A DNA stretch of 64,000 nucleotides from an uncultured Ignavibacteria bacterium. GTDB lineage: Bacteria; Zixibacteria; MSB-5A5; CAIYYT01. The stretch covers positions 73,350 through 137,349 of the forward strand of contig CAZTYE010000005.1 in NCBI GenBank assembly GCA_964617645.1, written 5' to 3'. A program made the position numbers and the translations under genes. The notes beneath the pieces are model-generated. The model was not told where the DNA came from. It did no database searches and worked only from the letters and a program-made list of their open reading frames with translations. Below, piece by piece: positions 8,663-63,535 of this stretch (the stretch's first letter is position 1; each line of letters starts with the position of its first letter).

Positions 8663-9493
8663 TCACTCTGTGTTCGCGAGTGAGACCTCAAGCCAGATCT
8701 CGCTTGTCTGGTCGAAGTTCCCGCGCGGCGGGCCGCCCTGGGGTCGTCCTCCTCCCATCCCGCCCCCGGGACCGCCGCCCGGGTGTCCGCCTCCGCCGGC
8801 AGGCGGCCCAAATCCTCCTGAGTCCTTTCCGCGATGTTCCTTCATCTTGGCCTTTTCGTCGTCGGTCATGTATCCGAATTCGAGCCCGAGTCGAAGTTTG
8901 CTGTTTTCCGTCATTCCGAGTGCGATCGTCTGGTCGTTCAGCGCTGTGAGTGGGATGCGCCATTCATAGAGATATGTCCCGGCGCTGAAACCGGAAGCCA
9001 CCATCGGCCCGCGCTCGCCCGTCTGCGGGATCTCCTCCACTTGGCCTTTCCGAACGACCTGAATGAACTGCCGGGCGTGGGCCTGCTCTTCCAACATCTC
9101 ATCGCGACGCCGCGCAAACTCCGGAGCGGCCTGATTGGCGCGTTCGTCGAGTCGGCTTTTCGGAATTCCGCCGCGATAGCGCAGGCCCAGGTTGCGGTTT
9201 TTCTTGCCGTCGAGATTCACCCAGATCGTCAGGCCGCGCGTTTCCATTTGCCGCACGACGTTTGGGTCGCGCGACAGGGCGATGAGATAAACATTCGCGC
9301 TATCTTGGCGCAGCGCGATCGCGGTGTTATCGTCATCGAAATAGCTGAATGCGGCATCGCGCCAGTCATCGGCGCTGCCGTCCACGAAAACGCCGCCATT
9401 TGTCGCGACGCTGCTTATCTTGCCATCCTCGGCAAGTGCTGCGGCGCAGATCGCGATCGCGAAACAGTAGGCCAGTACGAGTAAGCGTCGCAT
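8663..9493 (-). CDS. Secreted hypothetical protein with a Gly/Pro-rich C-terminal tail
   Basis: The internal Met at 9493 gives a signal peptide, MRRLLVLAYCFAIAICAAALA. The C-terminus is GGFGPPAGGGGHPGGGPGGGMGGGRPQGGPPRG. Confidence 0.5.
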   Translation of the reverse strand: MRRLLVLAYCFAIAICAAALAEDGKISSVATNGGVFVDGSADDWRDAAFSYFDDDNTAIALRQDSANVYLIALSRDPNVVRQMETRGLTIWVNLDGKKNRNLGLRYRGGIPKSRLDERANQAAPEFARRRDEMLEEQAHARQFIQVVRKGQVEEIPQTGERGPMVASGFSAGTYLYEWRIPLTALNDQTIALGMTENSKLRLGLEFGYMTDDEKAKMKEHRGKDSGGFGPPAGGGGHPGGGPGGGMGGGRPQGGPPRGNFDQTSEIWLEVSLANTE

Positions 9494-9609: not shown

Positions 9610-10197
9610 TTAGCGGTAGCTGTATTTCGGCTGCCACTTGTCGGCGCCACGCGGCAACAAGTCGAATAAGTGCCAGGTCGCACAGAAATCATCACCCGGC
9701 CCGAAATAGGCGTGAGCGATGCGATACATCCTTCCTTCTGAGTCTCGACGAAACGTCGAAACCCCCGGCCATGGCGACCCGTTCTCGCCTTCGAACCCGA
9801 GGTCTTTGCCGAATGACGTGCCACGATAGGAGTAGATCGGGAATTTCCAGCGTCGCCCCTTGGCGAAGTCGCGCATGACAATCGGATCATCGGGCGAGAT
9901 CACAACGAATCCGGCGCGATCCGACAGATGCTCGCGCAGACCGTTGAAACCGTCCGCCCACATCGTGCAATAGGCGCAGCGTACGCCCATGTTATGGATC
10001 AGCAGCAGTTCATCTCGGCCGCCGAAAAGTTTGGAGAGGCTGACTTTCTTGCCGCCGCCGGTCGTGAAAACGTAGTCATCCACGGCTTGCGGCGGCACGG
10101 ATTTTCGCAGCTTGGCGAGTTTTTGCTTGTCCTTGAGAATCTGCTTTTCCAATCGTTCGACTTGCTTGAGTCGACCGGCGGTGCTCTTACTGGCCAT
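9610..10197 (-). CDS. DUF899 thioredoxin-like family protein
   Basis: 195 aa. The CAYCTMW motif and overall similarity are typical of the DUF899 family. Confidence 0.65.
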   Translation of the reverse strand: MASKSTAGRLKQVERLEKQILKDKQKLAKLRKSVPPQAVDDYVFTTGGGKKVSLSKLFGGRDELLLIHNMGVRCAYCTMWADGFNGLREHLSDRAGFVVISPDDPIVMRDFAKGRRWKFPIYSYRGTSFGKDLGFEGENGSPWPGVSTFRRDSEGRMYRIAHAYFGPGDDFCATWHLFDLLPRGADKWQPKYSYR

Positions 10198-14305: not shown

Positions 14306-14363
14306 CCAGCCAAGATCCTGTTGACATCGATACTCGAATTGATACTTCGGCTTTGCAATCCTT

Positions 14364-14394
14364 GGATTTGTAGCTCAGTTGGTTAGAGCTCGCG
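14364..14394 (+). other. Inverted partial copy of the tRNA-Ile 5' half (acceptor + D-arm), not a complete tRNA
   Basis: GGATTTGTAGCTCAGTTGGTTAGAGCTCGCG on the + strand, against GGGCTCGTAGCTCAGTTGGTTAGAGCGCGCG in the minus-strand tRNA-Ile. The following 11-bp-stem hairpin (14391..14417) is not an anticodon arm. Confidence 0.6.
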
Positions 14395-14554
14395 TCCCGA
14401 CCTTTGGTCGGGACGCGCGCAGCGTCATCAGACGGGGAATCTTCAAATGGGTTCGGGCAGAGTTGCGCTGCCGATCCCGACCTTTGGTCGGGATGCACAC
14501 AGCGTCATCAGGCCGGGAAATTTCAAATGGGCTCGGGCAGAGTTGAACTGCCGA
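14395..14554. repeat. Two tandem 80-bp units; each is a copy of the tRNA-Ile 3' end (T-arm + acceptor) plus ~53 nt of its 3' flank
   Basis: Units 14395..14474 and 14475..14554 align base for base: TCCCGACCTTTGGTCGGGA...CAAATGGG(T/C)TCGGGCAGAGTTG(CG/AA)CTGCCGA. The second unit supplies the real tRNA 3' end. Confidence 0.75.
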
Positions 14555-14601
14555 CCTCGCGCTTATCAGGCGCGCGCTCTAACCAACTGAGCTACGAGCC
14601 C
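14528..14601 (-). tRNA. tRNA-Ile (anticodon GAT)
   Basis: The reverse complement folds as a cloverleaf: acceptor GGGCTCG/CGAGCCC, D-arm GCTCAGTTGGTTAGAGC, anticodon stem CGCGC/GCGCG with loop CTGATAA, T-arm GGCAGTTCAACTCTGCC. Confidence 0.85.
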
Positions 14602-14893
14602 AGGAATAGGGAATGCCAAAGTACCAATCGACTTGAACTTGTCAATAAGATTTTCCTCGTTCCTGAAAGGCAAAGCCGGCGAATCTCATCGATCCACCGG
14701 CTTGTTGGGTGAGTGGAGGGATTATGACCAAACCCGCAATAGGGGGTAATCAGGGTAAAAGCTCTCGCGGCTAATCTGACTAATGGAGCAACTGAACTTG
14801 AGCCGCTTAGTCGCCTTTACACTGGGGAAGACGCACCGCCGGAAATGGTGTTTAATCCGTTCGCGAAAAATCTGGGTTTCGTATATTCGAGTC

Positions 14894-18611: not shown

Positions 18612-19300
18612 GGACGAGTAAGACCGTAAGGTCTTCAGATAGATGTGACAAGCTTGTTTCCCGCGTCGTCGGGAAAGTCACGATCTTTGACAACTAAATA
18701 TCAGAGCCGATGCGGATCGAAACCAGCGTGACTACAGAGATCGAGCTTTTAGGATTTCGATCAAGTTAATAAGAGCATACGGCGGATGCCTTGGCATCAA
18801 GAGGCGATGAAGGACGTGGTAAGCTGCGATAAGCCTCGACTAGGAGCAAACATCCTTTGAGTCGGGGATTTCCGAATGGGGCAACCCAGTGCCGCGAAAG
18901 CGGTATCTATCGCATACTGAATTCATAGGTATGCGAGGCGAACGGGGAGAACTGAAACATCTCAGTACCCCCAGGAAGAGAAAACAACCGTGATTTCCTG
19001 AGTAGCGGCGAGCGAAAGGGAAAGAGCCTAAACCGACGGGTACGTTAAAGCGGATACGCGTTGTACCTTCGGTGTAGCGGGGTCTGTTCGGACCGAAGTG
19101 TCCATAGGTCGGTAAGTCAAAAACCGTTTGTTTAGTCGAATACGCCTGGAAAGGCAAACCAGAGACGGTGACAGTCCGGTAGACGAAAAACAAACGACTT
19201 ACTCGAATGGATTCCCAAGTAACTCGGAGCACGAGAAATTCTGAGTGAATCTGTCGAGACCACTCGATAAGGCTAAATACTCCTTGATGACCGATAGTGA

Positions 19301-19332
<32 letters not shown>

Positions 19333-20475
19333 GCTGACGCGGAGTGAAATAGTACCTGAAACCGTGTGCTTACAAGCTGTGGGAGGAAGAGATGTCCTTC
19401 GGGATGTCTGGACTGACCGCGTGCCTATTGAATAATGACCTAGCGAGTTACTCCTCGGTTGCAAGGTTAAGGCAAACACTGCCGGAGCCGTAGCGAAAGC
19501 GAGTCTTAAACGGGCGTTTAGTAGCCGGGGGTAGACCCGAAGCCAGTTGATCTATGCATGGCCAGGATGAAAGGCCGGTAAAACGGTCTGGAGGTCCGAA
19601 CTCACCGCTGTTGAAAAGGCGGGGGATGAGCTGTGCATAGGGGTGAAAGGCCAATCAAAACTGGAAATAGCTGGTTCTCCCCGAAATAGCTTTAGGGCTA
19701 GCCTCGTGTTAAAGTGTGACGGAGGTAGAGCACTGAATTGGCTAGGGGGCCTACAAGCCTACCGAACCGAATCAAACTCCGAATGCCGTCGACATGTTCC
19801 ACGGGAGATAGTCTACGAGGGATAAGCTTCGTAGGCGAAAGGGAAACACCCCAGACCGCCGGCTAAGGTCCCTAATCAGAGCTAAGTGACAAAGGATGTG
19901 GAATTACTGAAACAGCTAGGATGTTGGCTTAGAAGCAGCCATTCATTTAAAGAGTGCGTAATAGCTCACTAGTCTAGTGATTCTGCGCCGATAATAAACG
20001 GGACTAAGCTTTGCACCGAAGCCGCGGACTTCCTGCCGCAAGGCAGGATTTGGTAGGGGAGCATTCTGTTGTAGTGCGAAGGTGTCGCGACAAGCGATGC
20101 TGGACGAATCAGAAGAGATTATGCTAGGACGAGTAGCGATAAAACAGGCGAGAAACCTGTTCACCGTAAACCTAAGGGTTCCTGAGGAAGGTTAATCCGC
20201 TCAGGGTTAGTCGGATCCTAAGTTCAGGCCGAAAGGCGTAGATGATGGAAAGCAGGTCAATATTCCTGCACCAGGTGTGAAGCGTTTGAGCTATGGGGTG
20301 ACGCAGTCGTGAAAGAGCAGCCGGCCGATGGATGCCGGTCCAAGCAGGTAGGCGGATCGCACAGGAAAATCCGTGCGGTCAACGCCGAGATGTGACGGGG
20401 AAATGAGTCTTCGGACAAACCAACTGCTCCTAATCATACTGCCGAGAAAAACCTCTCTGCAAGCAACACATCTGT

Positions 20476-20509
<34 letters not shown>

Positions 20510-20995
20510 ATATCCTAAGGTGCTCGAGCTAACCCACGTTAAGGAACTAGGCAAAGTGGCCCCGTAACTTCGGAAGAAGGGGTGCTCCTAAGTAGGTGTA
20601 GCGTACAGCGAAGCCGAATGGAGTCACAGTAAAGAGGCCTGGGTGACTGTTTACTAAAAACACATGTCTCTGCTAAGCCGTAAGGCGACGTATAGGGACT
20701 GACACCTGCCCGGTGCTGGAAGGTTAAGAGGAGGGGTCAGCTTTGATTTATCATTGCGAAGCTCTGAATCGAAGCCCCAGTAAACGGCGGCCGTAACTAT
20801 AACGGTTCGAAAACGTTCCTTTCTTTCGATTCGCGATCCTTAATTCATCGGCTTTCAGCAATGAAAGCTTGTGATTATGGGCCGTTACAAAATCCGGCTA
20901 TATGCTGGAAACTCCGTGTATCTGACGCTACCCCGCCTTGGCGGGGTGACAATGCGCTCAGTGCGGACAACCAGCAGGAAAGATCAAGTCAGCTT

Positions 20996-21039
20996 GGGTG
21001 CCCCACAGACCTGTCCCGCTTTGCGGGATTGCGGTGGGA
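20996..21039. repeat. Hairpin repeat family B, copy inside the 23S insertion
   Basis: GGGTGCCCCACAGACCTGTCCCGCTTTGCGGGATTGCGGTGGGA, with nested inverted repeats CCACAG/CGGTGG and TCCCGC/GCGGGA. Confidence 0.7.
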
Positions 21040-21092
21040 AAACGTAAGCTGCTCGATATCCTCAGAGACTGTACGCCGGACGGATTTTCTCG

Positions 21093-21124
21093 GGTGCCCC
21101 ACAGCTTGCTGTGGGGTCAATGAG
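21093..21124. repeat. Hairpin repeat family A, copy inside the 23S insertion
   Basis: GGTGCCCCACAGCTTGCTGTGGGG, palindrome CCCACAG-CTTG-CTGTGGG. Confidence 0.7.
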
Positions 21125-21264
21125 AGATCTAAAGATACAGTCCGAACTTCATGGCGACATGAAGAGTGCGGCAGAAATGACCGCACCCATTGCCTCGATC
21201 CGAACATCGGTCAAGTGATAGAGACGCTTGACCACAAACGTGATCTTGCATTGAGTAACAACTG

Positions 21265-21320
<56 letters not shown>

Positions 21321-21573
21321 AACTTGGGCGCTGTCTCAACGTGGGACTCGGTGAAACTGTAGCAGCGGTGAAGATGCCGCTTACCCGCATCGGGACGAAA
21401 AGACCCCGTGGACCTTTACTATAACCTGGCATTGGTATTTGGACGGGCATGTAGAGCATAGGTGGGAGGCTTTGAAGCTGGGGCGCTAGCCTCGGTGGAG
21501 CCATCAGTGGAATACCACCCTTGTTCTTTCGGATATCTAACCTTGACCCCTGAATCGGGGTGAGGAACACTGC

Positions 21574-21606
<33 letters not shown>

Positions 21607-21824
21607 CAAAGAGTAACGGAGGCGTACAAAGGTTGACTCAGGCTGTTTGGTAATCAGCTGTAGAGCGCAAGGGTATAAGTCAGCTTAACTGCGAGACGTA
21701 CATGTCGAGCAGGTACGAAAGTAGGTCCTAGTGATCCGGCGGTTGTGCGTGGAAATGCCGTCGCTTAACGGATAAAAGGTACCCCGGGGATAACAGGCTG
21801 ATCTCCTCCGAGAGTTCACATCGA

Positions 21825-21888
<64 letters not shown>

Positions 21889-22327
21889 CTGGCTGTTCGC
21901 CAGTTAAAGTGGTACGTGAGCTGGGTTTAGAACGTCGTGAGACAGTTCGGTCTCTATCTGATGCGGGCGTAGGAGATTTGCGGGGAGTTGACCCTAGTAC
22001 GAGAGGACCAGGTCGAACGGACCGCCAGTAGACCAGTTGTCGCGCCAGCGGCATGGCTGGGTAGCTGTGTCCGGTAGGGATAAGCGCTGAAGGCATCTAA
22101 GTGCCAAGCCCACCCCAAGATTAGATCTCCCTGACGTAAGTCCTAAAGGCTCCTGGAAGATGACCAGGTGATAGGTCACAGATGCAAGCGCTGCGAGGCG
22201 TTCAGTCGAGTGATACTAATTGGCCGTGAGACTTGATCTATAAATTTGTCGGCGGGGCGAGAGCATCAAACTCACCCCATCCCGATAAATCTTGATCCAA
22301 GTACGTCAAACTCTTCGGTGGCCCACA

Positions 22328-22461: not shown

Positions 22462-22575
22462 TGTCATTCCGGCGAAAGCCGGAATCCAGGTTTCGCCCGT
22501 CATTCCCGCGCAGGTTGAGCGCGACGAAATCCCGCGCTTCAGCGGGACGGGAATCCAGCGGAGTCGGGAAGAGAA
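22462..22575. repeat. Composite RS3-like stem-loop repeat (family E variant) in the 23S–5S spacer
   Basis: GTCATTCCGGCGAAAGCCGGAATCC...CATTCCCGCGCAGG...CCCGCGCTTCAGCGGGACGGGAATCCAGCGG. Related to the units at 61.7 and 63.1 kb, with the first module inverted. Confidence 0.6.
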
Positions 22576-22591
22576 TAGGCAACCGAATTTT

Positions 22592-22707
<116 letters not shown>

Positions 22708-22716
22708 TAAATGACA

Positions 22717-22748
22717 AAACCCCTGCTTGGAAACGAGCCGGGGTTTTT
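22717..22748 (+). terminator. Intrinsic terminator of the rRNA unit
   Basis: AAAACCCCTGCTTGGAAACGAGCCGGGG hairpin followed by TTTTT. Confidence 0.6.
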
Positions 22749-22785
22749 GGTTTGCGGTTTTGATGACCCCCGATATATTTGGAAC

Positions 22786-23085
22786 ATGACACCGAAAATT
22801 GCCATTCCGCAGGCGCAGATCGAGGACTTCTGCCGCCGGCATCACATCAAACGCCTCGCGTTGTTTGGATCCGTGTTGCGCGACGACTTCACGCCCGAAA
22901 GCGACGTCGATGTGCTGGTCGTCTTTGAGGAGGGTAAAACGCCGGGATTGGAATTCATCACCATGCAAGATGAACTTTCGGAGCTGCTTGGGCGCAAGGT
23001 CGATCTGAACACCGAGCAGTCCCTGAGTCCCTATTTCAAGAAACGTGTGTTGAACAGCCTGATGGTGCTCCATGAGCGAACGTGA
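22786..23085 (+). CDS. Nucleotidyltransferase-domain protein, MntA-type antitoxin
   Basis: Using the internal ATG at 22786 avoids overlap with the rRNA terminator. GS-x9-DxD motif (LFGSVLRDDFTPESDVDVLVVF) and typical ~100-aa size. Confidence 0.7.
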   Translation: MTPKIAIPQAQIEDFCRRHHIKRLALFGSVLRDDFTPESDVDVLVVFEEGKTPGLEFITMQDELSELLGRKVDLNTEQSLSPYFKKRVLNSLMVLHERT

Positions 23086-23225
23086 CGAATACACTCCAAA
23101 GCGCGAAACCAGGCGCTTTCCAAACCAGTACTAATCCACCGTGCCCGATCGTAACTCGGGTTTCTACTGCTCCTAACTCGTCGACAATATATCACCTCCG
23201 TTCAATCGCTTTCCGCACGAATGCT

Positions 23226-23353
23226 CCCTCAAACAGTTACGGTCGTGCAATCGTAGGAGTCTTCATAGAGGAAATAAGTCCACAAATTCTCGCGCGGTCG
23301 GGAATCCTTTCCCGACCGTTGCGTGTGCCGTCAGGATCGGAATCCTGACGGCG
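23226..23353. repeat. Composite repeat X+C, upstream flank of the dockerin-protein gene
   Basis: Module X: CCCTCAAACAGTTACGG...TCTTCATAGAGGAAATAAGTCCACAAATTC. Module C: GCGCGGTCGGGAATCCTTTCCCGACCGTTGCGTGTGCCGTCAGGATCGGAATCCTGACGGCG. Confidence 0.7.
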
Positions 23354-23365
23354 CATCGTTGCCGC

Positions 23366-23417
23366 GGGTGCCCCACCGACCTGTCCCGCCCTGCGGGATT
23401 GCGGTGGGATTAGACTC
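23366..23417. repeat. Family B hairpin repeat
   Basis: GGGTGCCCCACCGACCTGTCCCGCCCTGCGGGATTGCGGTGGGATTAGACTC. Confidence 0.7.
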
Positions 23418-24054
23418 CCGTGCGTGATACGCGTCGCCGTCTGCCACAGCGCGTACTACGGAAGATGTTGGCCCACGAGAGCGTACGTCAATCACGCGTG
23501 CGCCTTTGGCGCATTGTTCGACAGCGGTCGAACCCACAGAAGCCCAGCCGGAAGGTCAAGCCCTTGCGGGGCTTATCACCCAAGTTAGTACTTTCAAAAT
23601 CACTCCAATAAAATGTACAAAAAAGTACTTGACCTGAATCGACCGATGTAGTAGTCTTTCACAACGCAATCGAAACATTTCGAGACTAAAATTCTTAGTC
23701 AAAAAACGATCTAAGAACTGCACTGCTGCAATTGACTCTCATCCCGCGAAAAGATCGTGGATAGGTGTAGGGATATTGTTGCTCCGATCGCTGTTAAACG
23801 CGAGTTGTCGGGTGACTGGGCCTGCATTCACAAAGCCACGCGCAGCGAGTGCTCAGGCCGTGGAGTTGAAATACAGCCGGTTTCAGGACGACCTAATCAA
23901 CTCGGAAATGCCGGACCGATGATAATTACCTGCAGCGCAACCTCAGCCGAAGAACTATCCGGGACGACCGGACAGAAATGGGAGGTAAGAGAGAGTTTGC
24001 ATTACATCGTACGTTGACAACGACCTACTATGGAACTGAACCACATGGGAGAAC

Positions 24055-26388
24055 ATGCTCATGAAAACGTTGTTAAGAATTGTCCCTGTTGCATTGACTC
24101 TTCTTTGGTACATCGGTACATCTGCCAAGAGCGGAACGGACTCGCCGGCGCCTCAGGGATCGCTGCTCAATCATGCCGAGATGTCGCGGTCGCCTCACGA
24201 GGATCATGGCAGCACGTTTCGGTCGACGACATCGAATCTTGCGTCGACATGTTCGACGCAGAATTATCTCGCAGGCCCACTGACATATTTCTGGACCATT
24301 CCGAGTGATCAAGGTGCATACACCGAATTAGCTATGCGTTTTAGCACGGTCGCAGACGACACTCTAAAGGAAGTGAGTGTTGCCATTTACGACCAGGGCA
24401 ACGGCCAGTTCGGGAATGACACAATCTACATTAAAATCTACGCAGACAATCTCGGGCTTCCGGGTACATTGCTCGATACGAAAGCCGTGGCGCCGGGAGC
24501 GTATCCGGCATTTCCTGGCCGTCTGACCGTTACTTATGTCGCCGGTCCGGTGCTGTACGCTGACTTCCACGTCGGAGTCAGCACGAGTGCGCTTCAGCCC
24601 TTTCTGTGGGAGTCAATCTTATCTGACAATAAGCTCTTGGGAAACGACCGGTCCTCTTACAAGCAAAGCGGAGTCTGGGAGCCGTTCTCTCCAGGGAATC
24701 AAGACGACCCCAATTTCGACATAGCGGTCGTCACTTGTCGTACCGCGGGCCCATTCACAGGATCAATTATCGGTAAGAAGTTCTATGACGAGAACCGAAA
24801 TGGTGTAGAGGATCCGGGCGAGCCGGGACTGCAGAACTTCAAGATCGAGGCACGCAAGGAGGGTGTACCCGGTGTGTACGACACAAAATTCACCGATATC
24901 GACGGCATCTACTTGTTCGAGAACCTGCCATATGGAAATTACTACATTAGTGAGGACTTATCGTCGCTTCCGGGATGGACACAGACTGCGCCATCCAGTG
25001 TCGGGGGATTCGTCGAAGTCAGGGAAGATCAAGGTTATTTCGGTCCCGATTTCGGCAACGATTCGGCGAGTTGTCTCTTTCCGTATTTTGTCGACTTTGA
25101 TTCGTGTCTGAATGGCACACAGGACGGATTCGCAGGGCCTGAGCCGGCCTCGCCGACCGGCACTCTATTACTTCATATGTATGGCGTAAGTACCGGGGCC
25201 CTGACTGCTTTTGACGCGATCGCTGATAAGAAGTGCTTCGGACATACGCTGCGATGTTGGGACTCGACTTGCATGGTGATCAGCGCGACGTTGACCATGC
25301 ACATCCGGGCAACGGCAGCGTCTTGTGAATCCGACGTGTTCCAGCTTGGCGATTTCATAGCTGGTGGGCCGGGTGTGATCTGGAGCATACCGGTTCGTGA
25401 GTTGATCCCTTTCTCAGTCGGGACTCCTCAGGACGGAAGCTGGAATCTAAACGATGATATGACTTTCGTGCTTGATCTGGCCAACTTGCCGGCGACTGCG
25501 GGAGCTATCGGACCGCGCAATATATTGGCGGCGATGCATGATGGCAATCTCGATGTGCTCTTGTACGATGACACCATGGTTGACTACATATTACTCGAGG
25601 TCATTCGCTGCTGCAGTAATCCGTGCGAACAGGATACCTTGTTCATCAACAGCGGTTTTAACCAGCTGAAGGAGCTCGTACTGGCGCCGGGAACTGTCGA
25701 TGCGGAGTGGAAGGTTACCAAGGAATACGGCGCTGCGGTCAGCCCGCCTCGCGCCGCCTTCGTAGTCCAGAATGATCCGGCGTGGAACGCTGCTCAGCCA
25801 CAAAGTCAGTGGCTGACATCGTTCATCAAGACTGGTGACCCCACTTTGCCTTCCCCTGCTTCGTGGCCGGGCGAGTACGATTTTGAATACGAGTTCTGCC
25901 TTGACTCGGGTTTTACGAATCCGCGACTTGCCATCGAGATGATTTCGGATAATGCCGCGTCCGTTCTCTTGAATGGGCACTCGATTGGGTCAACCGCATG
26001 GAATTCCTATTCGCAGCCTCCCGTTGCGATAGTCACCTTTAATGCGGCGAACTTCAAAGTCGGTCGCAATAGACTTGTGATCAAGGTTGACAACACAGAA
26101 CCGGCGGATAGCCCGGTCGGCATCGATCTTGTCGGCTGGGTGACCGCTGATGGTTTCAGTGTTGGACAGGACAGCTGTTGTTGTAAATGTGGCGATGCAA
26201 ATGGCGACGGGAATGTCAGTATCGCCGATGCCGTTTACATGATACAGTACATATTTGGCGGCGGTCCTGCGCCGTGTCTTGGCGCGGGCGATGTAAACTG
26301 CGATGGAACGGTCTCTATTGCCGACGTGGTATATATTATCAATTACATTTTTGGCAGCGGGCCCGCACCCTGCGCAAACTGCAAATAG
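24055..26388 (+). CDS. Secreted protein with an SdrD-B/Cna-B-like domain and a C-terminal type-I dockerin repeat pair
   Basis: Signal peptide MLMKTLLRIVPVALTLLWYIGTSAKS. GSIIGKKFYDENRNGVEDPGEPGLQNF...DIDGIYLFENLPYGNYYI. C-terminus CGDANGDGNVSIADAVYMIQYIFGGGPAPC...GDVNCDGTVSIADVVYIINYIFGSGPAPC. Confidence 0.7.
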   Translation: MLMKTLLRIVPVALTLLWYIGTSAKSGTDSPAPQGSLLNHAEMSRSPHEDHGSTFRSTTSNLASTCSTQNYLAGPLTYFWTIPSDQGAYTELAMRFSTVADDTLKEVSVAIYDQGNGQFGNDTIYIKIYADNLGLPGTLLDTKAVAPGAYPAFPGRLTVTYVAGPVLYADFHVGVSTSALQPFLWESILSDNKLLGNDRSSYKQSGVWEPFSPGNQDDPNFDIAVVTCRTAGPFTGSIIGKKFYDENRNGVEDPGEPGLQNFKIEARKEGVPGVYDTKFTDIDGIYLFENLPYGNYYISEDLSSLPGWTQTAPSSVGGFVEVREDQGYFGPDFGNDSASCLFPYFVDFDSCLNGTQDGFAGPEPASPTGTLLLHMYGVSTGALTAFDAIADKKCFGHTLRCWDSTCMVISATLTMHIRATAASCESDVFQLGDFIAGGPGVIWSIPVRELIPFSVGTPQDGSWNLNDDMTFVLDLANLPATAGAIGPRNILAAMHDGNLDVLLYDDTMVDYILLEVIRCCSNPCEQDTLFINSGFNQLKELVLAPGTVDAEWKVTKEYGAAVSPPRAAFVVQNDPAWNAAQPQSQWLTSFIKTGDPTLPSPASWPGEYDFEYEFCLDSGFTNPRLAIEMISDNAASVLLNGHSIGSTAWNSYSQPPVAIVTFNAANFKVGRNRLVIKVDNTEPADSPVGIDLVGWVTADGFSVGQDSCCCKCGDANGDGNVSIADAVYMIQYIFGGGPAPCLGAGDVNCDGTVSIADVVYIINYIFGSGPAPCANCK

Positions 26389-26404
26389 TCGATTCCATCT
26401 TTCT

Positions 26405-26549
26405 TGCGCGGTCGGGAATCCTTTCCCGACCGCTGCATGTGCCGACGGGATCGGCGTCCTGGCGACGCGTTGTTGCGCGGGTGTTCCCTCAAACAGCTAC
26501 TGCCGTCCACTCGTAGAAGTCTTCATAGAGGAAATAAGTCCACAAATTC
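26405..26549. repeat. Composite repeat C+X, downstream flank of the dockerin-protein gene; same modules as 23226..23353 in swapped order
   Basis: GCGCGGTCGGGAATCCTTTCCCGACCGCTGCATGTGCCGACGGGATCGGCGTCCTGGCGACG, then CCCTCAAACAGCTACTGCCG...TCTTCATAGAGGAAATAAGTCCACAAATTC. Confidence 0.7.
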
Positions 26550-26577
26550 AAGCATAACTCGACGGAAGGAGTTTGTC

Positions 26578-27093
26578 ATGAGAGCAAGGCATGCAGCCAA
26601 GCCGCTACTACTTATTGCGCTGATTTCATTACTATGCGCAGGACTTTGGTCTTCAGTCGCCGCGCAACAAAATGCGCAACCGAAACCGGCGGCTGGAAAA
26701 TCGTTGTATGACCGATTGGGCGGCGCCTACGCCATCGCAACGGTTGTCGACGACTTTATCGAAAGACTGCTGGTTAACGATGTTCTCAACGCAAATCCCG
26801 CAATCAAAGAAGCTCGCGATCGCGTTCCGAAGGCCGGACTGAAGTTTCACGTGACCACGCTGGTCTGTCAGGTCACCGGTGGCCCGGAAAAATACAGCGG
26901 CCGCTCGATGAAGGATGCGCATGCGCATCTAAACATCACCGAGACGGAATGGGCGGCAATGGCTAAAGATTTCAAGACGACACTTGAAAAGTTCAAAGTT
27001 CCCCAGAAAGAACAGGATGAGCTCTTTGCCATCGTTGGTACCACCAAGGCCGATATCGTCGTGGGTTCGACTTCGCAATCGACGAAGAAATGA
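26578..27093 (+). CDS. Group I truncated haemoglobin (2/2 Hb, trHbN-like) with an N-terminal signal peptide
   Basis: ATG at 26578 with a GGAAGGA ribosome-binding site. Signal MRARHAAKPLLLIALISLLCAGLWSSVAA. Globin core SLYDRLGGAYAIATVVDDFIERLL...FHVTTLV...YSGRSMKDAHAHLNITETEW. Confidence 0.7.
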   Translation: MRARHAAKPLLLIALISLLCAGLWSSVAAQQNAQPKPAAGKSLYDRLGGAYAIATVVDDFIERLLVNDVLNANPAIKEARDRVPKAGLKFHVTTLVCQVTGGPEKYSGRSMKDAHAHLNITETEWAAMAKDFKTTLEKFKVPQKEQDELFAIVGTTKADIVVGSTSQSTKK

Positions 27094-27250
27094 GCGGCGA
27101 AGTCTGATTACCCTAAGTCCCGTATGTCAGGAGCCCCACGCTCCTGACGCCTTACCGTAGACGCGGTTAGCGCGCGCGACCACGCGAAATTCACCCCGGC
27201 TTGACCCTTCGACTCGACTCCGAATTTCCTCTTGTCCCCACATCGTCAAC

Positions 27251-27268
27251 TTGTGATAATCATCACAA
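27251..27268. promoter_or_regulatory. 18-bp perfect palindrome TTGTGATAATCATCACAA, 20 nt upstream of dapF; candidate operator with a Fur-box-like core
   Basis: The TGATAATCATCA core resembles the central Fur-box TGATAATCATTA. Confidence 0.3.
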
Positions 27269-27288
27269 GGCGGGCAGGGAAGAGGCGT

Positions 27289-28131
27289 ATGCGCATTGCA
27301 TTCCACAAGTACCATGCCCTCGGTAACGACTTTGTAGTCATCGATCAGGCTAAACTTAACCCACGAGTTTTCGGCAAACTCGCGCGCGCCATCTGCGATC
27401 GCCACCGCGGTGTCGGCGCCGACGGTTTGCTCATCTGCCTTGTAGCGGGGAAAATACCACAGATGCGCATCATCAATGCTGACGGCTCCGAGGTCGAAAC
27501 TTCCGGCAACGGGCTACGCATCCTCGCGGCGCACTTGACCCGAACGAAGAAAGTGCGCGCGCCGCGCTTCCTGATCGAAACAATGAAAAGCGTTAGCGAA
27601 GTTCGGATTATTAGATCATCCGGCAATACTGCAACCGTCGCCGCCGCCCTACAGCCGGCCGATTTTCGCACTGCATCGCTGCCGATGAAAATTGGCACGC
27701 CGCACTTCGTCGGGCGGCCGCTGCGCACGGAAGCCGGCGATTTAATCGCCACCGCCGTTTCCGTCGGCAATCCGCATTGCGTGTTCTTCGTTGATAACTA
27801 CGACTTCGATTGGCAATCGTACGGCCGTGCGGTCGAGACCGATTCCCGATTTCCCAAGCGCGTCAATGTCGAGTTCGCGCGTGTGCGCTCACGCCGTCGG
27901 GTCGAAGTTCGGCTCTGGGAGCGCGGCGTTGGCGAAACCGATTCGTCCGGCACCGGAGCAGCGGCGGTCGTCGCCGCGGGAATCATCATGGGCCTGCTCG
28001 ATCGCCGTGTCAAAGTCGAATCGTCTGCCGGCGCTCTGGATATCTCCATCCCGACGCTGGACGCCCCGATTCAAGTCACCGGGCCGGTTACCTACATCGC
28101 TTCGGGCGAGTTTGAATATTCAACTTCGTGA
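27289..28131 (+). CDS. dapF: Diaminopimelate epimerase
   Basis: MRIAFHKYHALGNDFVVID N-terminus; second catalytic-Cys region GNGLRIL; ~280 aa. Confidence 0.9.
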   Translation: MRIAFHKYHALGNDFVVIDQAKLNPRVFGKLARAICDRHRGVGADGLLICLVAGKIPQMRIINADGSEVETSGNGLRILAAHLTRTKKVRAPRFLIETMKSVSEVRIIRSSGNTATVAAALQPADFRTASLPMKIGTPHFVGRPLRTEAGDLIATAVSVGNPHCVFFVDNYDFDWQSYGRAVETDSRFPKRVNVEFARVRSRRRVEVRLWERGVGETDSSGTGAAAVVAAGIIMGLLDRRVKVESSAGALDISIPTLDAPIQVTGPVTYIASGEFEYSTS

Positions 28132-58790: not shown

Positions 58791-59063
58791 TTCGTCGATA
58801 TGTCCTGTGCGCGGCTGACGCCCACGTCGGCCACGTGAGATTAGGGAGCGCATTGTGGTGACGTGTACGAAGCGTGCGGAGGCTATTGTCATTTTGGCGA
58901 AAGCCGACAGGCGATTTGACGATAATGTCGGGTGCCAAGCGGCACTGAGAGCTTAACTCGGGCGATTGAGTTCAACGTAATATCATTGACAAAATTCTAC
59001 ATCAATCTCAAAGTAATGATCAAAAATACCATCACATGAGTGAAGAGAGTTTGGAGCAAAAAA

Positions 59064-60980
59064 ATGGGTAAGGAAACTTATAGCGAGACACTTATAAGCC
59101 TTGCGATGCTCAAGGTCAATGCTGACGTAGAGGGTAAAGACTATATTGAATACTTGGTGCCTTTTGTTCAAGCCGTCCTTGCAGAGCACAATCCGAGTCC
59201 GGTGACAGCCCAAGCAACAACAGATCTGCTCTTTCAAGATTTTGGGCTCCGAGTTACAGATAGAGGTTGCGAATTAGTTCTCCGAAGGCTCGAGAAGAGG
59301 CAAATTCTCCAAAAGATCAACTACCAGTATCAAATTTCCAAATTGCCAAAGTCCGGTGACATCCGGCTCAAGCGGGAAGAAGCTCAGAAGAGGCTCGAAG
59401 AATTCATTGCGTCATTGATTGATTTCGCAGCAAGATCGTTCTCATTCGAGTGGACGACTGAAGACGCGAAGTCTGCTTTTATTCACTATCTGTCCAAGTT
59501 CTCGATTGAATGCCTCAAGGCCTTTCAACTTGGAACTGCCCTTCCTCGGGTCAACGACCCCGACCCGAAGAACGTCTACGCTTGCGCTGCCTTTATTAGA
59601 GACTTGAAGGAGACGGCCAATCCACTCTTTGAGGCCGTAATCGTCTATGTTAAAGGACACATGCTCGCCAATGCCTTGATTTGTCCCGACTTGGCCCAAG
59701 TCACAACTAAATTCAGCGGCGTTAAGTTCTACTTAGATACCCCTGTTATACTGAAACTGCTTGACCTTCAAGGGCATCACGAAAAGCGAGCGGCCGAAGA
59801 GCTTCTTGAAGTTGTTGTTGCACTCCGGGGCGAATTCTACGTCTTCGAGCATACTTTTCAAGAAGTCTTTCGCGTCATCCAAGGCGCGGAAATGCACCTC
59901 GACGATCCCAAGGGTCGGGGACGCATCGTCAGCGAAGCACGGCTACGAAACCTTAGTAAGAGTGACTTGGCGATGATACGAACCAATCTTGAGGAAGTAT
60001 TGAAACAACACTCGGTTCGAAAGATCGATACACCAGACTATAGCTTGAGCTTTCAAATCGACGAGAAGCTTCTCGCAGAAACCATTGACGATGACATCGA
60101 TTATCTGAACGAAAAGGCACTCGCTTATGACGTGAACTCCATCCGTAGCGTGTATGCACTTCGCAAAGGAAAGGAACCAACCAAGTTGGAGGACGCGAAT
60201 GCTGTGCTGGTCACCTCGAATGGAGCCTTAGCGAGAGCAGCATACGAGTACGGGAGGGAAGTCGAGTCAAGTCGCGAAGTGTCGTCTGTCATTACCGACT
60301 TCAGTTTAGCGAACATCGCTTGGCTGAAGGCACCGTTGAAGTCGCCAGAATTTCCACGTTTGGAGTTGCTGGCCTCGTGCTACGCGGCAATGGAGCCGAA
60401 GGCATCTCTTTGGAATCTCTATTTGTCCGAGATCGACAAGCTTCGAGAATCAGGTCAAGTTAGTGCTGACATGCACGCTGTCCTCCGTTATTCGTTGAAA
60501 GCGAAGGAAGAGCTCATGAACCTGACGTTGGGCTCTGAAGAAGATTTCTCTCAGAGAACTGTTACCCAGATCATTCAGCGAGTGAGCAGTGAGCTCTCCA
60601 AAGAGAAGCAGAAAGAAATCGAGGCAGAAAGACTGGCGCGGCAGGCTGAAGCTCGAGGTCGGGAGCGAGAATTGAGCCTGCGACGTGAGATCGAAGATCG
60701 TGTCAAGGCTCGGGTCTCAAAAGTCTCAGCAATATCGAGTGCGGTGATCATGGTTATGGCTGCCTTTCTAATTGTTACAGGGTCGGTATATCTCGCATTC
60801 TTCTCAGGTAATTTCGTTGAATGGCCTCTCGGTACACGAATAGTCCTGGGCCTTGCAGTGACAGTTGTATTCGTCTGGGGAATTCTCGATCTGATCCTCG
60901 GAGTCTCGGTAAGAGACGCGTCACGCAACCTCAATGAGTGGCTGCGGCGAAAACTAGAAAAATGGTTATTGCCGGGATAG
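59064..60980 (+). CDS. Hypothetical protein on a lower-GC island: PIN-like nuclease motif in the middle, C-terminal coiled-coil and two TM helices
   Basis: ATG at 59064 with a GGAG ribosome-binding site 8 nt upstream; the ORF track opens at a GTG at 59040. KFYLDTPVILKLLDL resembles PIN motif 1. Acidic FYVFEHTFQE sits ~40 aa later, and AVLVTSNGALA resembles the T-x-D motif but with N. C-terminus: KEKQKEIEAERLARQAEARGRERELSLRREIEDR, then two hydrophobic helices. Confidence 0.5.
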   Translation: MGKETYSETLISLAMLKVNADVEGKDYIEYLVPFVQAVLAEHNPSPVTAQATTDLLFQDFGLRVTDRGCELVLRRLEKRQILQKINYQYQISKLPKSGDIRLKREEAQKRLEEFIASLIDFAARSFSFEWTTEDAKSAFIHYLSKFSIECLKAFQLGTALPRVNDPDPKNVYACAAFIRDLKETANPLFEAVIVYVKGHMLANALICPDLAQVTTKFSGVKFYLDTPVILKLLDLQGHHEKRAAEELLEVVVALRGEFYVFEHTFQEVFRVIQGAEMHLDDPKGRGRIVSEARLRNLSKSDLAMIRTNLEEVLKQHSVRKIDTPDYSLSFQIDEKLLAETIDDDIDYLNEKALAYDVNSIRSVYALRKGKEPTKLEDANAVLVTSNGALARAAYEYGREVESSREVSSVITDFSLANIAWLKAPLKSPEFPRLELLASCYAAMEPKASLWNLYLSEIDKLRESGQVSADMHAVLRYSLKAKEELMNLTLGSEEDFSQRTVTQIIQRVSSELSKEKQKEIEAERLARQAEARGRERELSLRREIEDRVKARVSKVSAISSAVIMVMAAFLIVTGSVYLAFFSGNFVEWPLGTRIVLGLAVTVVFVWGILDLILGVSVRDASRNLNEWLRRKLEKWLLPG

Positions 60981-60990
60981 AGTGCGCGTG

Positions 60991-61039: not shown

Positions 61040-61180
61040 TGATTGAGGCACTCATCCCCAATCTCGAACTGCCTTCTTCGTGGAGCACGAAAGCGGACTT
61101 GCGTGTCCCCAACAGTCAACGCCTCACATTAAATTCTGCCGTGCTTTGGGCATCACGCCGCAGGCGTCGTCGAAAAATCA

Positions 61181-61238
61181 ACCCTCATCCCCAACCCCTC
61201 TCCCTGACAGGGAGAGGGGCAAGGGGAGAGGGTCGCGC
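61181..61238. repeat. Family F palindromic repeat (CCCTCTCCCTGACAGGGAGAGGGG core), upstream of the DUF559 gene
   Basis: CCCTCATCCCCAACCCCTCTCCCTGACAGGGAGAGGGGCAAGGGGAGAGGGTCG. Confidence 0.7.
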
Positions 61239-61267
61239 ATCATTCCAAGAATCGTTATCTTACATTG

Positions 61268-61633
61268 ATGGGCAAACTTCCGCCGTACATGATCGCGCTT
61301 TGCCGTGAACTTCGTAAAAACCAGACCGACGCAGAAGCGCTCCTGTGGGCTTGCCTGCGACGAAAGCAACTTGGCGGATTCAAATTCCGACGGCAGCATC
61401 CGATCCGGCGTTATGTCGCGGACTTCTGCTGCATCGAAGAAAAGCTGATAATTGAACTCGATGGGGAAGTTCATAATGATGCTGATCGACATGACTACGA
61501 TCGGCGACGCGTTAATGAACTGAGATCGCGCGGCTTTCGAGTCATGCGCTTCCGTAACGAAGCGGTGCTTGAGCAGACGGAGAATGTTCTTCGCAAGATT
61601 CTCTCGGCCCTCACCCCCAACCCCTCTTCCTAA
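61268..61633 (+). CDS. DUF559 endonuclease-domain protein (Vsr-like fold)
   Basis: ARELRKNQTDAEALLWACLRRKQLGGFKFRRQHPIRRYVADFCCIEEKLIIELDGEVH is the canonical DUF559 core. Its 3' end runs into a family F repeat that encodes ...LTPNPSS. Confidence 0.8.
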   Translation: MGKLPPYMIALCRELRKNQTDAEALLWACLRRKQLGGFKFRRQHPIRRYVADFCCIEEKLIIELDGEVHNDADRHDYDRRRVNELRSRGFRVMRFRNEAVLEQTENVLRKILSALTPNPSS

Positions 61634-61660
61634 GCGGAAGTGGGGCAGGGAGAGGGTCGC
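61608..61660. repeat. Family F repeat variant overlapping the DUF559 3' end
   Basis: CCCTCACCCCCAACCCCTCTTCCTAAGCGGAAGTGGGGCAGGGAGAGGGTCG. Confidence 0.65.
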
Positions 61661-61665
61661 GAGTC

Positions 61666-61900
61666 TACTCCTGACGGCACGATGAAGCTGGATTCCGGCG
61701 TTCGCCGGAATGACGAACTCGGCTGGATTCCCGCTTTCGCGGGAATGACACGCACCAAGAAAAGTTTCTCCATGCGTTGTCTTCCCCGCGCAGGCCGAAG
61801 GTCCCGCGCTTCAGAGGGACGGGAAACCAGCGGTCTCGAAAATCAAACCCTCACCCCCAACCCCTCTCCCTGACAGGGAGAGGGGCAAGGGGAGAGGGTC
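61666..61900. repeat. ~235-bp composite repeat (RS3-like ATTCCC-N8-GGGAAT modules + family F), copy 1
   Basis: CCTGACGGCACGATGAAGCTGGATTCCGGCGTTCGCCGGAATGACGAACTCGGCTGGATTCCCGCTTTCGCGGGAATGACACGCACC...CCCGCGCTTCAGAGGGACGGGAAACCAGCGG...CCCTCTCCCTGACAGGGAGAGGGG. Near-identical to 63041..63272. Confidence 0.8.
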
Positions 61901-61911
61901 GTGAGCCCAAT

Positions 61912-62055
61912 CCCGACCGAGGTCGGTTCCGTCAGGATTGGAATCCTGACGGCGCAAAGAATGGCGCATTGCCATGCGCCCCGATGCGATGAAATTAACG
62001 CTCGTCGACGATCTCTCCCACTGTCAGGGCATGGGGCGCAGGAAGAGGGTCGGGC
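61912..62055. repeat. Partial family C module + module D + family F' variant
   Basis: CCCGACCGAGGTCGGTTCCGTCAGGATTGGAATCCTGACGGCG, then GGCGCATTGCCATGCGCCCCGATGCGATGAAATTAACGC, then CTCTCCCACTGTCAGGGCATGGGGCGCAGGAAGAGGGTCG. Confidence 0.6.
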
Positions 62056-62056
62056 C

Positions 62057-62953
62057 TCAATCGCGCTTGATCAGGCTGCCGTAATTCAGTGTTATCGATT
62101 CGCCCGGCTCGGCGTCGAAGTGCTTGAAGACGTTGAGCTTCACCAGTCCAAACGGTCCATAGTGCTGTACATAAAGTTCTCGAATTGGCGTTAAGTCGAA
62201 GCGAAGCCTCGCGCTCATCCGGCAACGCTCGCCGCCACAATCTGCATTGCGGCAATGATCATCGTTGTCGTAGTGGCGAAGGTAGAGATTGGCTTGAACC
62301 GGATCTGATTCCATGAAAGTCCGCGGCGCCATGTACATGAAGAAATAGTGATTCTTGCAGCCGCCGCCGAATTCGACATCCAGGATAATCGTATCCCTCA
62401 GAACCCGAGCAGCGACGAGATCATACTGGTCATGCGACAATCCCGAAACATAGTCAGTAAACATCACAGTGCCGGTCAATGAATCGGAAGGCGCTGACCT
62501 TGAGACCATGAGACCCGCTCGCGCATCCGGCATCGGTGGCGTGGCTAAATCGTCGATTCTTCCGAGATTTGGATCGGGGAACAGGGAATGCAACTCGAAG
62601 TAATAGCCGTTCCAGAACACCCGACGTCGGGAGCAGTCACCGTCGGACGCAGCGCCAATGATCCCCAGCGTCAGAAGCTGTGCTGGAGTCGAACCGCGTT
62701 TGACCAGGATGGTGGCCTCGGCGTAGCCGGGGAATAGATATTCGGGGTGCTCGGGATGGCGCAGATCGACCGATGTGCCATTGAAAGTTACGGCTAAATC
62801 TTCACCGTGCACGCGCGCAGTTTGGCGATAGTCGAGAATGAACGATTGCTCCATCTGGACGACAATGTCACGATCGTCATCTTCATTGCATTGAATGGTG
62901 AGCAGGGAGAAAGCAGAGATGGCAATGATCGCGAGGGAAGTGGAATATCGCAT
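62057..62953 (-). CDS. Secreted hypothetical protein (possible lipoprotein)
   Basis: 298 aa. Signal peptide MRYSTSLAIIAISAFSLLTIQCNE. No recognised catalytic motif. Flanked by the ~235-bp direct repeats. Confidence 0.5.
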   Translation of the reverse strand: MRYSTSLAIIAISAFSLLTIQCNEDDDRDIVVQMEQSFILDYRQTARVHGEDLAVTFNGTSVDLRHPEHPEYLFPGYAEATILVKRGSTPAQLLTLGIIGAASDGDCSRRRVFWNGYYFELHSLFPDPNLGRIDDLATPPMPDARAGLMVSRSAPSDSLTGTVMFTDYVSGLSHDQYDLVAARVLRDTIILDVEFGGGCKNHYFFMYMAPRTFMESDPVQANLYLRHYDNDDHCRNADCGGERCRMSARLRFDLTPIRELYVQHYGPFGLVKLNVFKHFDAEPGESITLNYGSLIKRD

Positions 62954-63040
62954 GCGTATGTCCTCCTACCCTGAAGGGACGCAAATGTAGACGAATTGTG
63001 CAACGCCGATTTGTGGATACGCTTGCCGAAGGCGAGTCCA

Positions 63041-63272
63041 TTCCTGACGGCGCGATGAAGCTGGATTCCGGCGTTCGCCGGAATGACGAACTCGGCTGGA
63101 CTCCCGCCTTCGCGGGAATGACACGCACTAAGTAAAGTTTCTCCATGCGTTGTCTTCCCCGCGCAGGCCGAAGGTCCCGCGCTTCAGAGGGACGGGAAAC
63201 CAGCGGTCTCGAAAATAAAACCCTCACCCCCTACCCCGCTCCCTGACAGGGAGAGGGGCAAGGGGAGAGACG
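63041..63272. repeat. ~235-bp composite repeat, copy 2, same orientation as 61666..61900
   Basis: Near-identical sequence. Differs by a few substitutions, e.g. ACTAAGTAAAG vs ACCAAGAAAAG. Confidence 0.8.
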
Positions 63273-63330: not shown

Positions 63331-63535
63331 CTGGATTCCGGCGTTCGCCGGAATGACGGGCTCGGCCGAATTCCGGCTTGCGTCGGAATGACAGTCTCCC
63401 CAACAGGGAGAGGGTCGCGTAACCAGCGCGATCGGGAATCCTTTCCCGACCGTTGCCCATGCCGTCAGGATCGGAATCATGACGACGCGATGCAGGGCGC
63501 ATGGCAATGCGCCCCGACGCGAATTAGTCTCGTCA
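63331..63535. repeat. Partial family E module + family C module + module D
   Basis: CTGGATTCCGGCGTTCGCCGGAATGACGGGCTCGGCCGAATTCCGGCTTGCGTCGGAATGAC..., then CGATCGGGAATCCTTTCCCGACCGTTGCCCATGCCGTCAGGATCGGAATCATGACGACG, then GGCGCATGGCAATGCGCCCCGACGCGAATTAGTCTCG. Confidence 0.65.

Follow-up and report, generated by a model that had tools for sequence, protein, structure and literature searches.

A secreted dockerin gene that probably lies between mosaic arrays of short REP-type repeats in an uncultured bacterium related to Zixibacteria

Background

Repetitive extragenic palindromic (REP) sequences and bacterial interspersed mosaic elements (BIMEs), mostly described in Proteobacteria, are short GC-rich hairpin repeats of intergenic DNA that sit close behind stop codons, are joined with other short motifs into mosaic arrays and come in several families per genome (PMC2817692, PMC3733652). 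Here, we explore a locus with comparable features from an uncultured bacterium with Zixibacteria as its closest named relatives, namely a 64-kb stretch of contig CAZTYE010000005.1 (positions 73,350 to 137,349; hereafter the window, to which all repeat and gene counts for the source genome refer). A gene for a secreted dockerin protein (24061..26388, + strand) is accompanied there, on both sides, by two repeat modules that we term X and C, and an earlier note on this DNA had taken the gene to sit in a cassette that is reshuffled by recombination between them. We consider it probable that the gene lies instead between two intergenic mosaic arrays of the lineage's own short, dispersed REP-type modules.

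Other described systems share some features with this locus. Members of the CGTC-tagged REP superfamily have an unpaired terminal CGTC, TGTC or CCTC, a stem of 8-9 bp that starts with AT, a loop of 4-5 nucleotides (nt) and a CCA tail; in the CGTC-1 type the tag reads (C/T)GTC, the stem measures 8 bp, again beginning with AT, and the loop 4 nt, with CCA as the tail (Di Nocera et al. 2013, PMC3733652). REPINs, which are mobilised by RAYTs (tyrosine transposases associated with REPs), are dispersed two-hairpin units built from two inverted copies of the same REP. Integron cassettes consist of a single gene followed by an imperfect palindromic element (attC), whose RYYYAAC and GTTRRRY cores belong to one bulged hairpin, and their arrays adjoin the gene of an intI tyrosine recombinase, with attI and a promoter. 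The non-cellulosomal dockerin proteins of uncultured bacteria of the Fibrobacteres-Chlorobi-Bacteroidetes (FCB) group are secreted, composed of several domains, and end in a duplicated dockerin segment that binds calcium.

Results and discussion

Repeat modules on both sides of the dockerin gene

Self-BLAST of the window recovered the order X-C upstream and C-X downstream of the gene, as the earlier note had described it, at a level far beyond chance and with all four copies on the + strand; the module positions given in that note stand, apart from the end of C, which extends ~17 nt further. The 65-nt X (23225-23289 vs 26485-26549) is 90.8% identical between its copies (E 1.6e-18): the final 31 nt are the same in both, and all 6 differences fall within the 5' 34 nt. 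This 31-mer has 2 matches in the window versus 0 in 100 shuffles, and C-type matches were likewise absent from the shuffled sequences. Module C (~80 nt; 23290-23370 and 26404-26483) is 85.7% identical between the flanks, and its self-BLAST alignment covers 84 nt (23287-23370 vs 26401-26483, E 2.3e-17).

On the upstream side, X is preceded by 10 nt (23215-23224; the combined feature spans 23215..23289) that resemble the tail of C, weakly, with 6/10 matches and a chance of ~2%. Upstream C (23290..23370), with hairpins at ~23295-23318 and ~23324-23355, is then followed by module P (23363..23417, + strand), a nested hairpin of repeat family D5. Downstream C (26404..26483), whose second hairpin is partly degraded, starts 16 nt past the dockerin stop codon, and downstream X (26485..26549) ends 28 nt before the start codon of a globin gene. 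The spacers around the dockerin gene measure 975 nt on the side of the preceding nucleotidyltransferase (MNT) gene and 189 nt on the globin side. No Rfam family matched across 22700-27300 at E <= 1.

C as a dispersed double hairpin behind genes

C folds as two strong hairpins, upstream with a minimum free energy of -52 kcal/mol (z -5.3) and downstream with z -3.2; for P, z is -2.4. Both stems of C are kept in 8 family copies from five sources, and in their alignment 5/21 predicted pairs show compensatory changes, so that C has the stem-loop character of a REP. X lacks it, as neither copy has a significant fold (z -0.32 upstream, -0.77 downstream).

Besides the two flanks, C occurs twice more in the window, each time on the + strand, inside a repeat array and followed by a hairpin termed Q (a diverged copy with Q at 61897..61989, and a copy with Q at 63424..63522). 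Relatives of C are present in four other contigs (L001, L009, L010 and L014), and a scan of JGI metagenomes with a 21-mer from C returned two loci only. Modules that are simply ubiquitous, a pattern that the earlier note had named as speaking against its cassette, are thus what was found in the case of C. The 3' neighbours of the four window copies are P, X, Q and Q; since C goes with different partners, the flanks are no mirror-image pair from a single event, and the swapped order of X and C can be read as a by-product of mosaic assembly. Furthermore, upstream C shares 90.5% identity with the copy at 63426 but 85.7% with downstream C, which is unlike a duplication left by one insertion event. 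P, too, recurs in the window, at 20993 (within the intron of the 23S rRNA gene) and at 60985, and several further families of repeat modules are present.

The placement of the repeats is that of REPs, i.e., extragenic, behind genes, and in unidirectional or convergent spacers. Repeats were found in 8 of the 25 spacers of at least 60 nt, in each case downstream of a gene or rRNA, and the 4 divergent spacers were free of them. For the dockerin gene, pckA and the open reading frame (ORF) 59040-60980, the distance from the stop codon to the first module is 5-16 nt, and REPs are likewise distributed close behind stop codons (PMC3733652, PMC2817692).

Hairpins with the CGTC-1 pattern are found at 22463-22492 (tGTC-ATTCCGGC-GAAA-GCCGGAAT-CCA), 61688-61750, 63061-63123 and 63331-63393, either single or as doublets in the same orientation, and in this respect hairpins of the window fit the CGTC-tagged superfamily (PMC3733652). 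C departs from it: its second hairpin begins with CGTC, but these letters are base-paired within a 14-bp stem, and its first hairpin is untagged. Nor does C follow the strict BIME architecture, in which identical REPs alternate in orientation, as its two hairpins differ, come as a fixed pair and keep direct order, with every C and X copy on the + strand and with varying partners (P, X or Q). It shares with REPINs the form of a dispersed two-hairpin unit, whereas its hairpins differ from one another and no RAYT was seen among the scanned ORFs of the window, a further difference, next to the affiliation of the host, from the REPs of Proteobacteria. REP and BIME copy numbers often exceed 100 per genome; the 64 kb of the window contain 4 copies of C and 2 of X.

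A truncated HepT gene and a breakpoint at the edge of C

The sequence left of the upstream array could be compared with relatives. The rRNA operon ends with the 5S rRNA gene (22591..22707, + strand; Rfam RF00001, 106.6 bits), behind which a scan for terminator-like sites placed a hairpin with a T-run (~22725-22760). The MNT gene follows (22786..23085, + strand; 99 aa; Pfam NTP_transf_2 4.1e-17, Polbeta 8.7e-14), and its homologues are 69-84% identical. The closest (84%) lies on the contig encoding P0132, where MNT (253-552) overlaps an intact HepT gene (539-892); the second-closest, P0133, lies on L014, a 2133-nt contig of SRR16938233 from an independent assembly, where MNT ends at 402 and HepT (91 aa, Pfam HepT-like) occupies 389-664.

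In place of the intact HepT (DUF86) of an MNT/HepT pair, the window holds only a stub of 20 codons (23072..23134, + strand; MSERDEYTPKRETRRFPNQY and a stop codon). Its ATG, at 23072, gives exactly the 14-nt overlap with the MNT stop that the intact HepT genes of the two relatives show, and its N-terminus (MSERDE, against MSKHDD in L014) loses its likeness after ~6 codons. The truncated HepT proposed in the earlier note is therefore corroborated by the conserved overlap and by the gene geometry of both relatives. A tblastn search found no HepT remnant elsewhere in the window. The HepT toxin gene has been deleted, and MNT is now an orphan antitoxin. A 17-codon HepT stub with the same 14-nt overlap was also seen behind an MNT homologue (73%) at 3287-3340 of L011 (and also in L012 and L013), from which it follows that orphan MNT genes with decayed HepT recur in the MNT family.

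L014 and the window are 97% identical over the 5S 3' end, the terminator and the MNT leader, and again over C, P and the following 30 nt (upstream C vs L014 1974-2057: 97.6%), though the MNT coding sequence set in this 97% backbone has a nucleotide identity of 76%. Between MNT and C, ~1.56 kb of L014 (an intact-looking HepT, a second 5S 3' end with terminator, hairpins of a type that we term S, and three small ORFs) stand in place of 23093-23286 of the window, which comprise unique sequence and X. X is absent from L014, and the homology resumes at 23287, i.e., at the X|C junction. As C-P is shared with L014 and X is absent there, C-P represents a conserved upstream unit and X a strain-specific neighbour. 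The apparent rearrangement breakpoint is exactly at the X|C junction; one event, in the lineage of either the window or L014, would have altered the sequence left of C, where the window now has X. In L014 itself, the MNT-HepT pair stands between two directly repeated copies of the 5S 3' end with terminator (1-75 and 775-844, 87.5%), which suggests an insertion of its toxin-antitoxin module where the rRNA operon ends.

The same comparison bears on a model of integration into a tandem C-X pair, in which the ancestor would have had (truncated C)-X-C-X before the globin gene, and a circular DNA made of C and P, the promoter region and the gene would have recombined with the second C, leaving C on both sides. 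The direct orientation of both X and both C copies agrees with such a history, as do the C-tail-like 10 nt before upstream X (6/10), which a 5'-truncated C-X unit would leave; yet that resemblance is weak, the flanking C copies are 86% identical only, though C-P differs by 3% between strains, the X copies differ by 9%, and L014 has no X left of its C-P. We regard this model as very unlikely.

Considering that the source contig stems from a metagenome assembly, and that X|C is the one junction unconfirmed by L014, the repeats might also have caused a false join, with the dockerin gene perhaps located elsewhere. Repeats of 65-84 nt that are 86-91% identical are, however, poor substrates for misassembly, the independent assembly of L014 confirms the junction from 5S to MNT as well as C through P to 30 nt beyond, and the GC content runs smoothly over the region, all of which makes an artefact extremely improbable.

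Mosaic arrays or a mobile cassette

We reason that C modules are REP-like double hairpins that would accumulate behind genes in tolerant spacers, giving rise to an upstream array of (C tail)-X, C-P and more hairpins and to a downstream array of C-X. By analogy with REPs, C would most likely act as a 3' stem-loop, by which the transcript from upstream is ended or stabilised and the gene that follows is insulated, and C probably forms such stem-loops in the transcripts that precede it. Its spread, now or formerly, was probably brought about by a transposase acting in trans, and the similarity among repeats may offer breakpoints for occasional rearrangement.

Several observations weigh against this reading. 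In all the sequence that we reached X has two copies, both at the dockerin gene, and since it forms no hairpin and has two copies in 64 kb, a dispersed family is not established for X. Neither the 44 window ORFs scanned with Pfam (most of those of at least 150 aa) nor a tblastn search with the Y1 fragment of L007 revealed a Y1_Tnp domain, such as a cognate RAYT (Y1 transposase) gene flanked by the repeats would encode, and no other candidate transposase was seen. Moreover, the window's four copies of C are arranged as two pairs that each flank a single lineage-specific gene for a secreted protein, an arrangement that has a probability of ~2% under random placement in spacers (a rough post-hoc estimate); however, the spacers of these two genes are also the longest ones, in which repeats can settle.

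The cassette of the earlier note, a unit between the repeats that would move or be exchanged through recombination of X and/or C copies, draws on the direct repeats around one accessory gene, which measure 65-84 nt and share identical cores of 27-31 nt, and on a second accessory gene (62057-62953) that also lies within direct repeat arrays containing C; the dockerin gene is furthermore outside the conserved synteny and low in GC at third codon positions (GC3), and the strain breakpoint falls at the edge of C. We nevertheless hold it to be unlikely. The flanking C copies are not each other's nearest relatives, C has varying partners and is present in other contexts, and L014 carries C-P without X. 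There is no recombinase among the scanned ORFs and no attC-like core in C, the sole full-length homologue of the dockerin protein (P0002, on L001) is not bracketed by repeats, and upstream of the gene there is a long spacer of its own, part of which is AT-rich and promoter-like. No match to the X-C-P array was found among PLSDB plasmids or INPHARED phages, and neither a 20-mer of X nor the core of C was found among the viral contigs of IMG/VR. What does hold from the earlier note is a history of insertion or disruption at the site, to which the HepT stub, the 1.56-kb difference from L014 and a synteny that starts only at dapF all point, whereas a cassette with X/C edges that is shuffled by recombination is not supported. 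Target-site duplications, for which the note had proposed to align the modules, are not what the flanks represent, given that these are direct repeats of 65-84 nt with identities of 86-91%.

Other classes of mobile unit were considered and rejected. No inverted repeats pairing the two flanks were found, and a composite transposon or miniature transposable element with inverted repeats (MITE) was dismissed on the absence of inverted repeats around the unit; integrases and transposases were absent from the 44 scanned ORFs. The likeness to an integron cassette, a single gene followed by an imperfect palindromic element, ends there, because no integrase domain occurs in those ORFs, GTTRRRY/RYYYAAC cores are absent from the flanking C copies, C has two hairpins in place of one bulged stem, and the gene has a 975-nt upstream spacer and a likely promoter of its own, with no cassette array.

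A further reading is that, in this lineage, REP-like arrays act as recombination borders for the gain and loss of single accessory genes for secreted proteins, in which case C arrays would mark exchangeable slots and X would be a scar or joint. We assign it a low probability; it draws on the paired C copies, the breakpoint at X|C and a C-like element preceding the gene of P0002 in a distant relative.

Were the gene indeed set between mosaic arrays of REP-type modules, the locus would be little beyond an example. It would indicate that mosaic repeats of this type also shape intergenic DNA near Zixibacteria, with a C double-hairpin family, marked by compensatory stem changes, common to several distinct metagenomic lineages, and it would illustrate that dispersed hairpin repeats can suggest false cassettes to readers. 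Its weight would be greater if a whole-genome census showed that the arrays mark slots for the exchange of accessory genes.

Candidate identities of X

A 20-mer of X searched against 185,579 GTDB representative genomes gave chance matches within coding sequence only. A coding remnant was rejected, as 0-1 of the 6 differences between the copies would be synonymous in any frame and neither copy reaches into an ORF; a sigma-70 promoter was rejected as well, X containing no sigma-70-like match.

X might also act in cis, as an operator or as part of a non-sigma-70 promoter common to the dockerin and globin genes, which would thereby be controlled together. Both copies are upstream of a + strand gene, and the identical 3' 31 nt would fit constraint, or equally a recent gene conversion. 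We find this very unlikely: one copy lies 28 nt from the start codon and the other ~770 nt, with at least 5 hairpins intervening in the latter case, no sigma-70-like match lies within X, and the orthologous site of L014 is without it.

The dockerin protein

The gene encodes a protein of 775 aa with a signal peptide, an SdrD_B domain (Pfam, residues 243-302, E 9.6e-10) and a C-terminal Dockerin_1 domain (residues 713-765, E 4.7e-11), in which two tandem segments of ~22 residues, each a calcium loop with a helix, make up a type I dockerin; the loop sequences are DANGDGNVSIAD and DVNCDGTVSIAD. Matches by sequence in the PDB were to SdrD and to clostridial dockerins, including 5lxv_B, 1daq and 2mte. 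The N-terminal and central parts match no known family, and an AlphaFold model built from a 4-sequence alignment was too poor for use (mean predicted local distance difference test score, pLDDT, 43). The secreted SdrD-B protein with a type I dockerin pair that the earlier note had recognised is thus confirmed, as is its statement that no cohesin is visible in the window, where a Cohesin domain was found in none of the 44 scanned ORFs.

P0002 is the single full-length homologue (37% identity), and its alignment spans residue 61 to the C-terminus. The public gene call (P0001, 684 aa) begins at Met94 and thereby omits the signal peptide and ~30 conserved residues. Because P0002 aligns from residue 61 and a GGGAGAA ribosome-binding site lies 7 nt ahead of the ATG at 24061, the longer form with the signal peptide is the correct one, and this ATG is the likely start codon; the gene had previously been placed at 24055..26388, of which the end stands and the start gives way to 24061.

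The protein resembles the non-cellulosomal dockerin proteins of the FCB group in its secretion, its several domains and its duplicated C-terminal dockerin, and in that no cohesin partner was seen nearby, and it differs from them in N-terminal and central parts without a known family and in its one full-length homologue. Similar dockerin C-termini are found in P0008 (named from Zixibacteria metagenome-assembled genomes) and in a neighbour gene in L007.

Between P and the start codon, the remainder of the spacer (23418..24060, + strand) comprises small hairpins, one of them (23551-23577) a degenerate member of the S type, followed by an AT-rich stretch and a leader with the ribosome-binding site. 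The GC content drops to 0.48 in this upstream spacer, and the AT-rich ~23590-23720 is the likely, predicted promoter region of the dockerin gene.

The locus of P0002 on L001 has another gene context and no bracketing repeats. Three modules lie about 900 nt upstream of its gene, namely a double hairpin that is C-like and shows compensatory changes in its stems (9022-9099), a D10-like hairpin (~9398-9420) and an S-type hairpin (9675-9705); as L001 carries C-like, D10-like and S-type modules, these module families are common to a distant relative.

A flexible region next to the rRNA operon

Past downstream X, a globin gene of the truncated-haemoglobin type (26578..27093, + strand; Pfam Bac_globin 2e-13) is followed by dapF, a major facilitator superfamily (MFS) transporter gene, argS, murA and onwards. 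The globin has a signal-like N-terminus (MRARHAAKPLLLIALISLLCAGLWSSVAAQQ), suggesting export, which is unusual in this family. Relatives with DapF proteins of 52% identity (Zixibacteria where named) share the synteny from dapF to lptD, while their genes left of dapF differ and nothing there is shared with the window; these relatives are too distant to show whether the dockerin gene is present or absent at the site. GC3 is 0.60 for the dockerin gene and 0.57 for the globin gene, against ~0.70-0.75 in core genes. A recent horizontal transfer was rejected on compositional grounds, the shift in GC3 being mild and common to other accessory genes. The stretch from the rRNA operon to dapF is a flexible region, in which toxin-antitoxin and secreted-protein genes have been gained, lost and rearranged.

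Near the other end of the window, direct repeats of 238 nt with an identity of 96% (61659-61896 and 63032-63269) enclose the ORF 62057-62953 (minus strand, 298 aa), whose N-terminus is signal-peptide-like and for which neither Pfam nor NCBIfam gave a match; C and Q modules follow further on behind each repeat. Long palindromes of the type ACCCTCACCCCCAACCCCTCTCCCTGACAGGGAGAGGGGCAAGGGGAGAGGGT, with 5 copies in the window, lie on both sides of the small ORF 61268-61633 (121 aa, within 61170-61661), the product of which would be a putative DUF559 or Vsr-like endonuclease.

Upstream of the 5S gene, the rRNA operon includes a tRNA-Ala gene (18539) and a 23S rRNA gene (18759-22240) with a group I intron. 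The insertion in the 23S gene is 460 nt long (~20827-21287), at model position ~1953, and contains the intron (RF00028, 59.7 bits, 20831-21164), with copies of P (20993-21047) and D10 (21089-21115) within its peripheral insertions. The window holds no 16S gene, and the tRNA-Ile gene (minus strand, 14527-14602) lies 4 kb from tRNA-Ala, on the opposite strand and separated from it by two protein genes. Together with its flank, the 3' part of tRNA-Ile is tandemly duplicated (two units of 80 nt, 88%, 14395-14554), next to an inverted fragment of a tRNA 5' half (14358-14394), and the tRNA-Ile duplications across 14358-14607 look like integration or excision scars at a tRNA gene.

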